A stretch of 64,000 bases of DNA, taken from assembly GCA_007376385.1 (NCBI GenBank), contig VMGC01000001.1, positions 192,001 to 256,000 of the forward strand. The letters run 5' to 3'. Below are positions 10,133-53,729 of the stretch, piece after piece. Source of the stretch: Parcubacteria group bacterium Gr01-1014_8 (GTDB lineage: Bacteria > Patescibacteriota > Minisyncoccia > Phycocordibacterales > UBA2100). Positions within the stretch are counted from its first letter, which is position 1. Each line of letters opens with the position of its first letter. A model generated the notes under the pieces. The model saw nothing but the letters and a program-made list of their open reading frames with translations. It had not been told where the DNA came from and did not search any database. The position numbers were made by a program, and so were the translations under genes.

Positions 10133-12660
10133 CGTGCCAAATACGATAGTCCTTTGACAACTGAAGAACGACACAATTCTTGCTCGTAAGAGCAGGAGAA
10201 AAAGAAAGAATAAGAAATTTTCTGAAAAGAAAATTTCTTTTCGCGCCGTCGCTCGCGGATCATGAGAATAAATTCTCGCGATACCGCTCGCTCGGCGCGA
10301 TCAACAACATTGATTCGGCTATTGTCTTTGGCCGGATCAGTGCAGGAAAAAATGTATTTTTGCGCAACCACTTTTCACAACCACAAGGTTGTAGAAAAGT
10401 GCAGTCCTGTAATAGGGAAAGCAAAAATCAAAAACAATCCGCCTTCGCACACGTTGTGTGCTATGGCGGGACAAAGAAAGTCCCGACACGCCAAAAGGTG
10501 TGACGGGCGCAATGCTTGTCCGTCTTGTAGCGGACAAGCAAAGTAATAAACCAATAACGCGGTTCTCAAATTTCCAAACGGGAATTCTGAGAAAGGGCGT
10601 GCGGCGGATGCCTTGACAGAAGAAGGCGATGAAGGACGCAGTTCGGCGGCGATACGCTTCGGGGAGGTGCCAAGCAACCTTCGATCCGGAGATTTCCGAA
10701 TGGGGAAACCCCATAGAGCAACCCTCTATGACTCATGCTCTAAACAGCATAGAGAGCAGACCTTGGGAAGTGAAACATCTCAGTACCAAGAGGAAAAGAG
10801 ACCAATAGGTATTCCCTTAGTAGCGGCGAGCGAAACGGGAAAAGCACAAACTCAGCCACAAAATCGAAGCGCGATTTATTTCGCGAATCGATTTTGGGGA
10901 TGGGGGTTATAAGGCTACAGCGCTAGCAATAGGTAGAGTAAAAAAATGCTTAGTTAGAGGAAGCGCCTGGGAAGGCGCGCAACACAGGGTAATAGCCCCG
11001 TACTCGAAAACGAAGCATCTCTATGGCTGTAGTTCTTGAGTAACTCGAGACATGAATAGCTCGGGTGAATTTGCCGGGACTAACCGGTAATGCTACATAC
11101 TTCTTCTGATCGATAGTGAACAAGTACCGTGAGGGAAAGGTGAAAAGAACCCCGGTGAGGGGAGTGAAATAGACCTGAAACCGCATGCCTACAAGGAGTC
11201 GGAGCGGGCACCACAGTGCTCTTGAAATTTTTTGCAGAATTTTTGCAAAAGATCTTTTCGGGTGCAGTGTGGTGTCCGTCACGGCGTGCCTATTGAAGAA
11301 TGAGCCAACGAGTTAATGCATACAGCTGGCTAAGCCCTTTTCGGGTGGAGCCGTAGCGAAAGCGAGTGTGAATAGCGCGACTATAGTTGTATGTATTAGA
11401 CCCGAAGCCAGGTGAGCTACCCATGAGCAGGCTGAAGTTTATAGAAATATAGATGGAGGGCCGAACCCGTAGATTGTGCAACATCTTGGGATGACTTGTG
11501 GGTTGGAGTGAAAAGCTTATCGAACCTGGTAATAGCTGGTTCTCTCCGAAAGAGCTTTCGGGCTCGCGTCATGGATTACATATGGGGGTAGAGCACTGGA
11601 AGAAGCGGATAGGCCGAAAGGCCACTGCCTCTATCAAACTCCGAATACCATATGCGTACCGTGGCAGTTAGACGATGGGGGCGAAGCTCCATTCGTCAAA
11701 AGGGAAACAGCCCAGACCGCCAGTTAAGGTCCCTAAATCTATGCTCAGTGCATTTCCAAGGAGGTGAAATTTCACAGACAGTGAGGATGTTGGCTTAGAA
11801 GCAGCCACCATTCAAAGAAAGCGTAACAGCTCACTCACTCAGAGATTTCGCGCCACAAATGATCGGGGCTTAAGCATAGTACCGAAACTGCGGATTCAGT
11901 ACGTCTTCGGATGTACTGTCTGGTAGGAGAGCGTTCTCTGTGCGATGAAGGTAAAGGGGTGACCCATGCTGGAGCGCAGGGAAGTGAAAATGTTGGCACG
12001 AGTAACCGCAAGGCAGGTGAGATTCCTGCCCGCCGAAAGAACAAGGTTTCCTTCGCAATGGAGATCAACGAAGGGTTAGTCGGTCCTAAGCCAATGGCGA
12101 ATGCCGCAGGCGATGGATTCATGGTTAATATTCCATGACTCGGAATTGGTGCGATGGAGTGACGGAGTGTTGTACCTCAAGCATATTATGGATTTATGTT
12201 CAGGCCGTGAGGATGCTTTTCAGGAAAATCCGGAGAGCACAGTCCAAGCGGAGTGGAAAAGTGGAGGCCTCGGCCGAAACTGATTTGAGGGAGCACGCTT
12301 CCAAGAAAAACTTCTAAGCTTATAACCAATGACGAACCGTACCGCAAACCGACACAGGTGTTCTGGTCGAATAGACTAAGGCGAACGGGTGAGAGATGCT
12401 CAAGGAACTCGGCAAAAAAGTGGCCGTACGTTAGCAATAAGGCCTGCCCAATACAGTGATGTATGGGGCCGCAGATAATTATTCCCAGGCGACTGTTTAC
12501 CAAAAACACAGCTCCCTGCAAACTCGTAAGAGGAAGTATAGGGGGTGATGCCTGACCAATGCCGGAAGGTCAAGTGTGGTCGGTCTCATATAGCAATATA
12601 TGTTGCTGGCACTACATAAGCCCCGGTCAATGTCGGCGATAACTATAATCGTCCTAAGGT

Positions 12661-13360
12661 TTCCCGCTTAAGAAATTGAGCGGGGAAGGACTGGGACGAT
12701 CATAGAATCGAATAAACAGCGAAAGAAAATACCAAAGCTGCCTCTCTGTGCAGTAATGCACAAGTGGTCCTAGAAACATGGCTATATGCTGGAAACCCTA
12801 TGGTATAATTATTCCATAGATGAGTAATCAGCAGGAAAGGCCAGAGATGAAAGGGTGGATCGTCGGTTTTACCGACGGCGAAGGATGCTTTTCAATAAGC
12901 ATGTTTCGCAACAAAACCACCAAGTTTGGTTGGCAAGTATTCCCAGAGTTTGTAATAACTCAGGGAAAGAAAAGTTTGCCAGCACTCGAAACTTTCCAAA
13001 ACTTCTTTAAGTGCGGAAAGATATACGAGAACGCTAGGTACGATAATCATCGTGAATATCTGTATCGATACTGTGTACGATCAATTTCGGATTTGCGGGA
13101 GAAAATAATCCCGTTTTTTCGAAAAAACAAATTGTATACAGCCAAACAAAAAGATTTCGAACTGTTTGCAGATGTCATAGAAAAGGTGTATCGAAAAGAA
13201 CATCTTTTAGAATCGGGATTGCGAGCGATAGCGCGCAAGATCGAACAGATGAATCGCAAGAAGAAATCAACATTTCTGGAATCCTCAGAGACTACACGCC
13301 ATGCCCCTAAATCTAAATAAGATCGGGTGAAGATATAGTCCAAAGGTAATAGGAACCTAG
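12661..13360 (+). mobile_element. group I-type intron in 23S at E. coli L1917-equivalent site, carrying a LAGLIDADG homing endonuclease gene
   Basis: Inserted between GGTCCTAAGGT and AGCGAAATTCCT. Contains ORF 12820..13320. Confidence 0.7.
12820..13320 (+). CDS. LAGLIDADG homing endonuclease (intron-encoded)
   Basis: 166 aa; motif GWIVGFTDGEGCFSI near N-terminus. Confidence 0.85.
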   Translation: MSNQQERPEMKGWIVGFTDGEGCFSISMFRNKTTKFGWQVFPEFVITQGKKSLPALETFQNFFKCGKIYENARYDNHREYLYRYCVRSISDLREKIIPFFRKNKLYTAKQKDFELFADVIEKVYRKEHLLESGLRAIARKIEQMNRKKKSTFLESSETTRHAPKSK

Positions 13361-13372
13361 AGCGAAATTCCT

Positions 13373-14142
13373 AGAAGACTGGGACTATCAGTCAAAAACT
13401 ACTGATAGCAAATTCTGCTATATGCTGGAAACTCCGAGTATCCAACAGTACCCTGACGAAATGGAAGGGTAAAAATCTGTTGGTGCGGACAATCAGCAGG
13501 GAAGTCGTAATTGACCCCTCAACGACTACACGCAGAACTCCACGAAGCTCATCAATCCGATGCTGTTTCGGGAGGTGATATAGTCTGAACTGCATGGCGA
13601 CATGCAGAGTTTGGCTCGCGCCAAACCGCTTCAAACAAATTGAAGTCATTATTCTCACTAGAGAATAGTAAGTAACAGAATGTGTCTGGTAACTGGATTG
13701 CCAGTTAGTACAGCGATGTACTACAAAAGATCCGCCTGTCAGCAATGACGGTAGTAATTCGGCTTATAACGGTGGAATCCTACTCGGAGCACTTTAGACG
13801 AGGTGCGTTGATGAAAGGATAATACCGTGGGAAGTCTTGTGAGTTTCGTGGAGGGCAACCTCCGTGCGAGAGCGCCTCGCCCGGTTGAGGGCGGTCGGTC
13901 GGCATTGGTGCTGACTGTCTGATCTGGAGCCTCTGTCCAGGCTCTCGCATCAATCTTCTCATCATGGTGATGGGAACTTCCACGAAACTCGCAATGACCC
14001 CGTAACGACTTAGCGCGAAAGCGCTGGAAGTGTCTCAAAAACACTTAACACGCCGACTCTGCAATGCGCAGAAGAAGATATAGTCTAATGCCCGAAGTAA
14101 TTCGGGGAGAGTGTCATATTGCGCGAAATATGACGATCAAAC
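13373..14142 (+). mobile_element. second intron-like insertion in 23S (L1931-equivalent), no intact ORF
   Basis: A 12-nt exon AGCGAAATTCCT separates it from intron 1; exon resumes near TGAAGTTCAGACGCGCACGAATGG. Only short or antisense ORFs inside. Boundaries approximate. Confidence 0.45.
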
Positions 14143-52778: not shown

Positions 52779-52805
52779 TAAAGATATGTGTGACCTTAGG
52801 AAAGG

Positions 52806-52938
52806 CGGGGGAATGGACGGAACAAAAGAGTGTCCCGACGCGCGAGAGCGGTCGGGATCCCGACCGAAGCGTCGGGATGTATTGAAGAAAATGCTACAAC
52901 CAAAAACGCCGACTCAACATGAGCACGGCGTTTTTTTG
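52806..52938. repeat. hairpin-ended intergenic repeat, copy 3
   Basis: aatggacggaacaaaagagtgt, then two tandem hairpins with identical stems (tcccgac...gtcggga twice), then caaaaacgccgactcaacatgagcacggcgttttttt. Confidence 0.75.
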
Positions 52939-53657
52939 ATTTGGATTTGATATTCCTCCCGGCGGCAATGCAGGCACTGCCGCCAGGAAGACTTTCCCTC
53001 ACTGGGTTGGTCGTTTCTCAAAAGCCGTTGGCTTGGCTACGGTTTTTCGTGCCCACTGGCGTGACCGCCGGTTGGCTCCGTTGCTGGGCTTGCGCCCGCG
53101 CCTCTTCTTTCGAGTACTTGTCCTGTGCCCCATTCGGCACTCCCTATGTTCGAGTAAGCATTTGCAAAGAGCGGATTCCCTCTGCCACGTCGAACGTAGC
53201 ACGTATGTAGGTGCTTTGTCACGCTTTACTAAAGTAGAGTGGTGTATACGAACATAAAAAACACCGAGACAATTCTTAGGCACAGCAGCGCTTGAATGAA
53301 CGTGTCCCAACTAAGCACCGCCGACCCGGGAGGGTCGGCGGTGCTGGTTGTTGCCAGAGAGTGGGTATCCAGCGCGAGGGCTACTTACGTCCGTGCTTCT
53401 GTTTCTTCTTCCTCTTGCCGGCATTCTTCCCGCAACGAGGATTCCAATTGGAAGCCTGACGTGCTTTCGCCTCCGAATGGTTGTGACCGCGATGGCCCAT
53501 TTTCGTACCTCTCAACGTGGCATCATTGCCGCGGCTAAAGTAGCACATGAGCCATGGTTTTGCTACCATCGCGGGTACAAGCGCGTTTAGCTCCGGCGGA
53601 TGATACAGACACATCGGTCGCAGCGAGGCGCGGTTTGGAGTAGATTGGTTTGATAAC

Positions 53658-53729
53658 GCGCGTTTAGCTCAGTGGTAGAGCATCCCTCTGATAAGGGGAA
53701 GGCCGTAGGTTCAATCCCTACAACGCGCA
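53658..53729 (+). tRNA. tRNA-Ile (anticodon GAT)
   Basis: Cloverleaf folded by hand: acceptor GCGCGTT/AACGCGC, D arm GCTC-AGTGGTA-GAGC, anticodon stem TCCCT/GGGGA with loop CTGATAA, T arm GTAGG-TTCAATC-CCTAC. No encoded CCA. Confidence 0.8.

Follow-up and report, generated by a model that had tools for sequence, protein, structure and literature searches.

How the ribosomal RNA (rRNA) genes of Parcubacteria group bacterium Gr01-1014_8 came to lie far apart, and what fills the interval between its 16S gene and a lone isoleucine transfer RNA (tRNA) gene downstream, are the questions raised by a stretch of 64,000 nucleotides (nt) from contig VMGC01000001.1 (hereafter the window; coordinates refer to it, and features lie on its plus strand unless stated otherwise). 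The answer that we consider probable is that the rRNA genes form separate units that were split long ago, that the interval between 16S and tRNA-Ile is hypervariable and holds in this genome two gene cassettes of independent origin, and, more tentatively, that recombination took place at a conserved module of the 16S trailer.

We mapped rRNA genes and introns with Rfam models, tRNAs with ARAGORN and protein families with Pfam. The 23S gene, recognized by the Rfam bacterial large-subunit model, occupies positions 10579-15938 (5360 nt) and is followed by the 5S gene at 16260-16365 (Rfam), with an extended helix I formed by 16247-16267 and 16357-16377. The 16S gene starts at 48063 according to Rfam and, as judged from exon alignment, ends at about 50364, its start being 31.7 kb beyond the end of the 5S gene. 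This map agrees with the original prediction, which had placed 23S-5S at 10.6-16.4 kb and the 16S gene 32 kb away, with no 16S preceding the 23S and no 23S following the 16S: within the window, Rfam and ARAGORN detected neither a tRNA nor a 16S gene upstream of the 23S, and Rfam detected no 23S in the 13.6 kb that remain downstream of the 16S. Likewise, the tRNA-Ile(GAT) gene, described earlier as standing alone at 53.66 kb and 3.3 kb after the 16S, was located by ARAGORN at 53658-53730 (Rfam end, 53729), which is 3.29 kb 3′ of the true 16S end at ~50364; the only other tRNA found by ARAGORN in the 64 kb is tRNA-Leu(CAG) at 62283. The 31.7-kb interval is occupied by Pfam-confirmed housekeeping genes on both strands (FtsW, sugar transferase, PurH, SecD, TrpE, AroA and AroC), with TrpA, TrpB and IGPS (TrpC) on the minus strand at 44065-46863, between 5S and 16S, and other minus-strand open reading frames (ORFs) between the rRNA units at 19187-20272, 25236-26381 and 35827-36969. 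The closest 23S and 16S edges (15938 and 48063) are separated by more than the 1500 bp above which Brewer et al. call such genes unlinked, and the layout, with minus-strand genes intervening, corresponds to type D, “unlinked by distance”, of Lui et al.

To judge the age of the split, we compared the window with related loci. The murA-like gene (433 amino acids (aa); 53934-55235; Pfam), the right-hand neighbour of tRNA-Ile, served as a synteny anchor, and relatives found through MurA were fetched as genome contigs L001-L018, most of which are metagenome-assembled genomes of the Candidate Phyla Radiation (CPR), with one labelled Gammaproteobacteria and one simply “bacterium”. A 19-mer of the 16S trailer, used as a metagenome query, matched at least 120 stretches, 80 of which were fetched (L085-L164; counts out of 80 refer to these). 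Membership of the window in CPR/Parcubacteria is borne out by its relatives, by exact protein matches (Parcubacteria group bacterium Gr01-1014_8 has proteins 100% identical to the 554-aa and 793-aa products of the window), by 16S helices shortened as is typical of CPR, and by three LAGLIDADG ORFs within the rRNA genes.

In the genome contigs, tRNA-Ile(GAT) lies shortly upstream of murA in L001-L006 and L008, being inverted in L003 and L004, while L007 opens with a cut-off tRNA and L009 carries tRNA-Ile about 9 kb upstream of murA; contigs L001, L002 and L003 extend back into the 16S gene. The 16S trailer is followed by tRNA-Ile(GAT) in 36 of the 80 metagenome loci, with murA next in most of those that are long enough, and the 19-mer is positioned 130-250 nt past the 16S end in nearly all metagenome loci that reach back to it. 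Altogether, tRNA-Ile(GAT) is present in about 45 related contigs, with murA almost always the next gene and with 16S upstream wherever the contig reaches, and tRNA-Ile is on the 16S strand except in L003, L004 and L115. No 23S similarity was found in any related locus (L001-L009 and the 80 metagenome loci). The shared order of 16S, tRNA-Ile and murA without 23S indicates that the split is old and clade-wide; on the evidence of gene order, it is ancient and not specific to Gr01-1014_8. The tRNA-Ile gene would then be the leftover spacer tRNA of a once-linked operon. The earlier proposal that an ancestral rrs-tRNAIle-rrl operon was broken up is thus supported by synteny, with the qualification that the break is ancient and that the linked ancestor is a reconstruction. 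Such unlinked layouts are already known and are the rule for most CPR lineages: according to Brewer et al. (bioRxiv 10.1101/705046), the CPR group together as a cluster whose rRNA genes are unlinked, and Lui et al. 2021 (PMC8172020) found 16S and 23S unlinked in 27 of the 34 CPR genomes that had been circularised.

The comparison also bears on a more trivial explanation, namely that a chimeric metagenome contig was joined at rRNA repeats, creating a false separation. rRNA genes are classic break and join points in assemblies, and many of the related contigs do end at or inside the 16S gene. However, the order 16S trailer, tRNA-Ile and murA with no 23S recurs in more than 40 independent contigs, which stem from different studies, proteins from both sides (554 aa and 793 aa) are encoded on one public contig of 407,897 nt, each rRNA unit has matching leader and trailer stems, and closed CPR genomes are documented to have this unlinked arrangement as a rule (PMC8172020), so that we regard an artefact as scarcely credible. 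One of the metagenome loci, L151, contains at ~9766-10102 a 5S gene plus a weaker second 5S-like match, about 10 kb from the 16S trailer and on the opposite strand, indicating that the relative placement of rRNA units differs within the clade.

Signals around the genes, as read from consensus matches and predicted pairing, point to three transcription units, 23S-5S, 16S and tRNA-Ile. The first would run from a promoter-like site, TTGACT-16-TATACT (10006-10033, a consensus match only), through a boxA-like motif, CTTTGACAACTGAA (10152-10165), and a processing stem to a terminator after the 5S gene, a hairpin with a T-run at 16384-16412 (-14.6 kcal/mol). The stem is formed by a 5′ arm at 10545-10589 and a 3′ arm at 15926-15970 (45 nt, 78% complementary, duplex energy -46.5 kcal/mol). 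The second unit would consist of the 16S gene alone, with its own promoter-like site, TTGACA-16-TATACT (47592-47619, an 11/12 match, again by consensus only), the boxA-like motif (47684-47697), a 25-bp stem and a terminator after the 3′ arm. The 14-mer is identical in the two rRNA leaders, at positions 10152 and 47684 (blastn-short E 0.001); it resembles E. coli boxA, GCTCTTTAACAA, and may be a boxA-type antitermination motif. The 5′ arm of the 16S stem, ATATACATTCTTTTGTTTCGTCCAT (47987-48011), pairs with 50490-50514 over 25 contiguous bp, including three G-U pairs, at -36.5 kcal/mol, as compared with -10.6 +/- 2.9 for shuffled arms, and it is kept in 11 further related loci that include the 16S leader. 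Leader/trailer complementarity of the RNase III type is therefore predicted around both 16S and 23S. The third unit would be tRNA-Ile(GAT) with a promoter-like element, TAGCAC-17-TACCAT (53541-53569), that is conserved in relatives: the motif TTGCTAC[CT]AT is found upstream of tRNA-Ile in 22 of the 38 loci scored, counting the window. The two rRNA leaders also have in common a hairpin with a T-run (10108-10135 and 47631-47652), located between the promoter-like site and the boxA-like 14-mer, and this parallel suggests either that the real promoters are further downstream or that the leaders include an attenuator-like element.

What, then, occupies the interval between the 16S trailer and tRNA-Ile? 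It had been described as a repeat-bracketed two-gene cassette, and the repeats are real: there is an exact 22-nt repeat at 50489-50510 and 52812-52833, a 40-nt repeat with 93% identity in the terminators of the outer units (50561-50600 and 52896-52935), and a partial third unit at 50979-51039, between the two ORFs. These repeats are the 16S trailer module, made up of the 3′ stem arm plus the terminator, present in duplicated form. The first module, U1 (50489-50606), contains the 16S 3′ arm itself (50490-50514), hairpins and a terminator at ~50566-50600; U2 (50975-51066) has a truncated arm, AAAAGAGTGTGTAT, with hairpins and a terminator, and matches the single 16S-proximal module of the related contig L084; and U3 (52812-52942) combines a second full 3′ arm (52812-52833) with a hairpin unlike those of U1 and a terminator. 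U1 and U2 are 72% identical. The 15-mer GGAACAAAAGAGTGT occurs in the window three times within two mismatches, against 0.14 occurrences expected. The order is module, 115-aa gene, module, 554-aa gene, module, and it is at this point that the earlier description needs refining, as the two genes appear to be two single-gene cassettes acquired separately rather than a single one.

The first cassette (50621-50968) encodes a 115-aa ORFan, predicted from its hydrophobic sequence to be a membrane protein, which has no Pfam family and whose sole database match, over 87% of the query, is 100% identical. Its G+C content (GC) of 0.399 (z -3.1) is the lowest of all window genes. The second cassette (51114-52778) encodes a 554-aa protein whose family is rare: a search of 5.8 billion clusters yielded 13 homologues, the more distant of which sit in non-rRNA contexts. 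The 554-aa gene has a GC of 0.439 (z -1.7). The composition check proposed in the original prediction thus gave a low GC, most strongly for the 115-aa gene, with tetranucleotide usage that is unremarkable (z < 1.3). No Pfam family was detected in the 554-aa protein, a sequence search of the Protein Data Bank (PDB) gave only chance-level matches to centrin, and a PADLOC match to mad2 was weak (E 0.007). Its AlphaFold2 model (mean predicted confidence, pLDDT, 78.7) matches methyltransferases of the RsmD/YhhF type over ~150 residues (E 5e-4; TM-score on target 0.55-0.59 against PDB folds), and the protein is therefore likely to contain a class I methyltransferase-like domain, of the S-adenosylmethionine-dependent kind, closest to RsmD/YhhF. 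Between U3 and the promoter-like element of tRNA-Ile lies a GC-rich (0.55) spacer with no recognisable gene (52943-53538), and a search for gene remnants in the 715 nt at 52943-53657 gave no significant matches. Pfam revealed no integrase or recombinase among the window flanking genes or the cassette ORFs tested.

The related loci show that the 16S-tRNA-Ile interval is a hypervariable insertion site, in which cassettes are often bounded by module copies. The distance from the arm to tRNA-Ile ranges from 0.11 kb in L132, where the arm, the terminator and the promoter-like box before tRNA-Ile all fit within ~110 nt, to 10.25 kb in L131, and two to four module cores are present in 17 of the 80 metagenome loci. 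Clustering of the 164 spacer ORFs left 107 as singletons and gave 17 small recurrent clusters. Cargo between modules includes MazF with its antitoxin, YafQ/RelB, Fic/Doc, GNAT acetyltransferases, a PhnB-like protein, a DDE transposase, DUF2975, a SEC-C-motif protein and many ORFans; there was no integrase among the 20 spacer ORFs tested in related loci. In L001, the closest relative (MurA 87% identical), two modules flank a MazF/antitoxin pair and neither of the window genes is present; L003 has one module with other small ORFs and, again, neither window gene; and L002 has one module. The L002 spacer gene is presumably, from a reading of its sequence, an ornithine/DAP-type (diaminopimelate) decarboxylase. 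In L084, which encodes a protein 79% identical to the 554-aa one, the order is 16S, a U2-like module, the 554-aa gene and a second module, with no 115-aa gene. Comparison with the window indicates that the 115-aa gene and module U1 were added upstream of a pre-existing module-554-aa-module unit.

L084 may also be read in the opposite direction, as having lost the 115-aa gene, in which case the window arrangement would be ancestral and its relatives would have lost genes by deletion between module repeats, a process that direct repeats are known to promote. This is quite improbable: the cargo of the relatives is unrelated and does not consist of parts of a single gene set, the 115-aa ORFan deviates in GC, the 554-aa homologues occur in non-rRNA contexts, and U1 and U2, at 72% identity, are not the product of a recent internal duplication. 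The same observations (other cargo in the relatives, the low-GC ORFan, and 554-aa homologues elsewhere) favour the earlier suggestion that the cassette material is a relatively recent insertion, and the synteny comparison turned up no relative with the same arrangement lacking the repeats.

The extra modules might also be not scars but functional RNA elements, retained by selection for processing and termination after every gene located downstream of the highly transcribed 16S. Every module ends in a strong predicted terminator hairpin, the modules are always in the 16S orientation, and a 23-bp duplex between the U3 arm and the 16S leader arm remains feasible (-32.8 kcal/mol). On the other hand, the leader arm pairs with only one 3′ arm at a time, no second copy of the 5′ arm was found inside the module arrays as a local pairing partner, many long spacers have a single module, and minus-strand cassettes (MazEF in L001 and L085) are flanked by plus-strand modules as well. 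We consider selection for such a function unlikely to account for the repeats.

How the cassettes enter is best seen where closely related loci differ. L159 and L114 are 99.94% identical over 1739 nt comprising the 16S end and the trailer arm, diverge exactly after GAGTGTATA at the arm end into unrelated segments of 725 and 509 nt, respectively, and rejoin at 100% identity from the -10 box of the next gene. Insertions and replacements begin at the arm, and many cassettes bring or create an extra module; identity between the copies in one locus extends from nearly complete (L123, L090) down to 72% (window U1 and U2), a spread that fits donor-derived copies. Within the question of mechanism, we tentatively favour homologous recombination at the ultra-conserved trailer module, to which we would give somewhat less than an even chance. 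Circular or other incoming DNA with one module could undergo a single crossover at the chromosomal module, yielding a module-cassette-module structure, and a double crossover, bounded on the left by the 16S/trailer region and on the right by a conserved gene downstream, could swap cassettes without duplication, as between L159 and L114. The two window cassettes would have been acquired independently, each then being trailed by a copy of the 16S trailer module.

A different mechanism is suggested by the module core. The trailer module may be an attachment site for a recombinase encoded elsewhere in the genome, acting in trans and capturing cassettes at the fixed core GGAACAAAAGAGTGT, in the manner of an integron or of integrative elements that rely on a recombinase of the host. 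The core of 14-19 nt is kept in every secondary copy, even where flanking similarity is absent, and in a scan of 84 fetched loci (L001-L084, 1.5 Mb) the 14-nt core was found only just downstream of 16S, and it was absent from the non-rRNA contexts of the 554-aa homologues. The left breakpoint between L159 and L114 coincides exactly with the 3′ edge of the arm, in window U2 and in the second L084 module the junction is internal to the arm, between GGAAC and AAAAGAG, and the cargo resembles that of integron cassettes in comprising toxin-antitoxin pairs, GNAT proteins and ORFans. Against such a recombinase stand the lack of any integrase or recombinase in the tested cassettes or beside the locus, a core that, by reading of its sequence, is non-palindromic and bears no resemblance to dif or attC sites, the presence of cassette genes in both orientations, a right junction in the L159/L114 swap that has no core copy, and a left extent of similarity between module copies that varies from 0 to ~90 nt. 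The 16S trailer as the docking site of a capture system without a cassette-borne integrase, by analogy an rRNA-anchored counterpart of integrons, is in our view a doubtful though conceivable alternative to homologous recombination.

Several observations weigh against parts of the reading that we prefer. Many secondary modules keep the same core of 14-19 nt, a constancy not predicted by plain homologous recombination and hinting at sequence-specific recognition or at selection. An identity of 19-25 nt is short for a RecA-dependent crossover. Many long spacers (L137, L142, L154) have a single module, indicating that duplication is not obligatory. With regard to the separate units, a second, linked rRNA copy is possible outside the 64-kb window; on the 23S side, the 793-aa protein encoded next to the 5S gene, used as a metagenome query, gave no match and thus offered no synteny anchor. 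The promoter and terminator calls are consensus matches whose frequency is not above that in shuffled sequence. Upstream of the 23S, where the original prediction reported promoter-like motifs and, correctly, no tRNA, sites of this kind are no commoner than in shuffles (5 found, 8.5 expected). Finally, the true start sites are uncertain because a hairpin with a T-run separates the promoter-like site from the boxA-like motif.

In its overall rRNA layout, the window is a plain member of the unlinked CPR set (bioRxiv 10.1101/705046; PMC8172020), with no essential difference: the gap of tens of kb between 16S and 23S-5S, its restriction to certain clades and conservation inside them, and the LAGLIDADG insertions are all shared. 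Those papers classify by distance and, to the extent that we read them, describe no leader/trailer stems, tRNA-Ile unit or cassette site. Rickettsiales, Wolbachia and Buchnera (cited in PMC8172020) have the same layout, with 23S and 5S together and 16S alone in small genomes with single-copy rRNA genes; they belong to another phylum, whereas the window keeps tRNA-Ile beside the 16S as a unit of its own and has turned the interval between them into a site of gene turnover. A flexible region that varies between strains, inside a former rRNA operon, has likewise been described in a streamlined genome, the hypervariable region of Pelagibacter (SAR11; bioRxiv 10.64898/2026.04.03.716425); it is ~47 kb long and separates 5S from 16S-23S, whereas in the clade of the window the region measures 0.1-10 kb, extends from 16S to tRNA-Ile and often has cassettes flanked by arm repeats.

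Genomic islands at tRNA and transfer-messenger RNA (tmRNA) genes are generally known to share the stable-RNA target, direct repeats derived from its 3′ end and tandem stacking with a repeat copy between successive elements. Direct repeats of the target trailer are present in the window too; unlike in such islands, the cassettes are very small, with one or two genes each, their repeats originate from an rRNA trailer, and no integrase was found. Chromosomal integron arrays are similarly built of one-gene cassettes (toxin-antitoxin, acetyltransferases, ORFans), each followed by a repeated boundary element. In contrast to them, the arrays of the clade have neither an adjacent intI tyrosine-recombinase gene nor an attC-type folded site (imperfect inverted repeats with a GTTRRRY core), their boundary is conserved in sequence rather than in structure, their genes occur in both orientations and they are anchored to the 16S trailer: no recombinase family was seen in the flanking genes or tested cassette ORFs, and the boundary is a non-palindromic 14-25-mer plus a terminator, a comparison for which no dedicated attC model was run. 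In a limited literature search we came across no account of cassettes delimited by repeats of the arm of a 16S processing stem, and the cassette-accreting 16S trailer may be regarded as a modestly novel integration hotspot.

CPR bacteria have tiny genomes with few recognisable mobile elements, and their exchange of accessory genes is poorly understood. The 16S-trailer site provides a precisely located, clade-recurrent locus at which gene flow, strain diversity and recombination can be followed. If the capture of cassettes at this site is as proposed, strains would exchange small genes (toxin-antitoxin pairs, acetyltransferases and ORFans among them), which would end up beside what is probably the most strongly transcribed gene of the cell. 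In practical terms, the cassette site explains the frequent assembly breaks of 16S-bearing contigs in the clade, and pipelines that expect a 16S-ITS-23S order (ITS, internal transcribed spacer) or trust automatic 16S ends mis-handle such genomes, as Rfam did here in cutting the 16S gene by 940 nt.

That truncation is due to an insertion. The 16S gene consists of exon 1 (48063-49390; E. coli 8-1399), an 844-nt insertion in the decoding-centre region after E. coli C1399 (49391-50234), which contains a LAGLIDADG ORF (49713-50168; Pfam), and exon 2 (50235-50364), which runs from CGCCCGTCA through helix 45 to GGATTCATTCAAAA and lacks the CCTCC anti-Shine-Dalgarno sequence. The 16S end reported by Rfam, 49422, was rejected, as conserved CGCCCGTCA and AAGTCGTAACAAGG are found at 50236 and 50314; in the intron-less relative L003, exons 1 and 2 are joined directly. 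The insertion is 83% identical in L002 and absent from L003, and L001 has an unrelated insertion of ~968 nt at the same site after C1399. No Intron_gpI match was obtained in Rfam for the 16S insertion at E up to 1, and its sole Rfam match is to group-II-D1D4-1 at 49639-49726 (42 bits; gathering score 35). Its junctions, C|A ... T|C, agree neither with the group I pattern (U closing the 5′ exon and G closing the intron) nor with that of group II. A group II assignment was not accepted, as a domain V match and a GUGYG start are both missing. A further 16S insertion, at AAGTCGT|AACAAGG (~E. coli 1498/1499), is present in L001 (1309-1688) and in L002 (~986-1749, with a group I intron match in Rfam and a 209-aa ORF) and absent from the window at the equivalent site, 50320/50321, indicating that intron content varies among close relatives.

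The 23S gene is expanded in the same manner, its 5360 nt compared with a model of 2925 positions including ~2.4 kb of intron-like insertions. Alignment to the E. coli 23S gives exon blocks corresponding to E. coli 22-1931, 1952-2499 and 2500-2883. The insertion after E. coli 1931 (12661-13360) carries a LAGLIDADG_1 homing-endonuclease ORF (12820-13320; PF00961, E 2e-25) and is followed, according to the alignment, by a 12-nt mini-exon (13361-13372) and by one or two more insertions from 13373 to ~14148, with a group I intron match (Intron_gpI, Rfam, 67 bits) at 13363-13607. Two or three insertions are thus crowded into E. coli 1931-1951, with mini-exons of only 8-12 nt between them. An insertion of 853 nt after E. 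coli 2499 (14700-15552) contains a LAGLIDADG_2 endonuclease frame (14836-15477) with PF03161 matches on both halves and one in-frame stop, and given this stop it is probably decaying. Directly downstream of the 5S gene, at 16809-19190, is the gene for the 793-aa protein mentioned above; its C-terminal region is MATCAP-like (PF08014), and no homologue other than itself was found at E < 1e-20 among 5.8 billion protein clusters.

The 16S gene also has an altered 3′ tail (50351-50364), GGAUUCAUUCAAAA, with no CCUCC anti-Shine-Dalgarno, and the same is true of L001-L003, L084 and most of L085-L164. Upstream of the 47 long window ORFs, GGAG is found in two cases and GGAGG in none, and no motif complementary to the altered tail is enriched there; a TATAAT-like box is seen 6-12 nt before many start codons. 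These features suggest that initiation may be leaderless or Shine-Dalgarno-independent. Loss of the anti-Shine-Dalgarno in a subgroup of Parcubacteria has already been reported (PMC9297842).

Upstream of tRNA-Ile in the window is a leader hairpin that opens with a pseudo 5′ half of the tRNA itself, GCGCGTTTAGCTCCGG... (53581-53635), present in 8 of the 38 loci scored, the window included. It is part of an element of ~77-85 nt (window 53581-53657) that starts with the first 13 nt of tRNA-Ile, GCGCGTTTAGCTC, continues with CGG... and forms a strong hairpin, and which is found in L008, L098, L104, L106, L119, L122 and L153 as well; in relatives that do not have it, the promoter box directly abuts tRNA-Ile.

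Among the genes between the rRNA units, positions 37703-47574 encode a near-complete tryptophan/chorismate set (TrpE, EPSP synthase, chorismate synthase, TrpA, TrpB, IGPS and PRAI), adjoined by the purine-synthesis genes for PurH, a PurT-like protein and a formyltransferase. Amino-acid biosynthesis is generally missing from CPR bacteria, which makes this gene set unusual.

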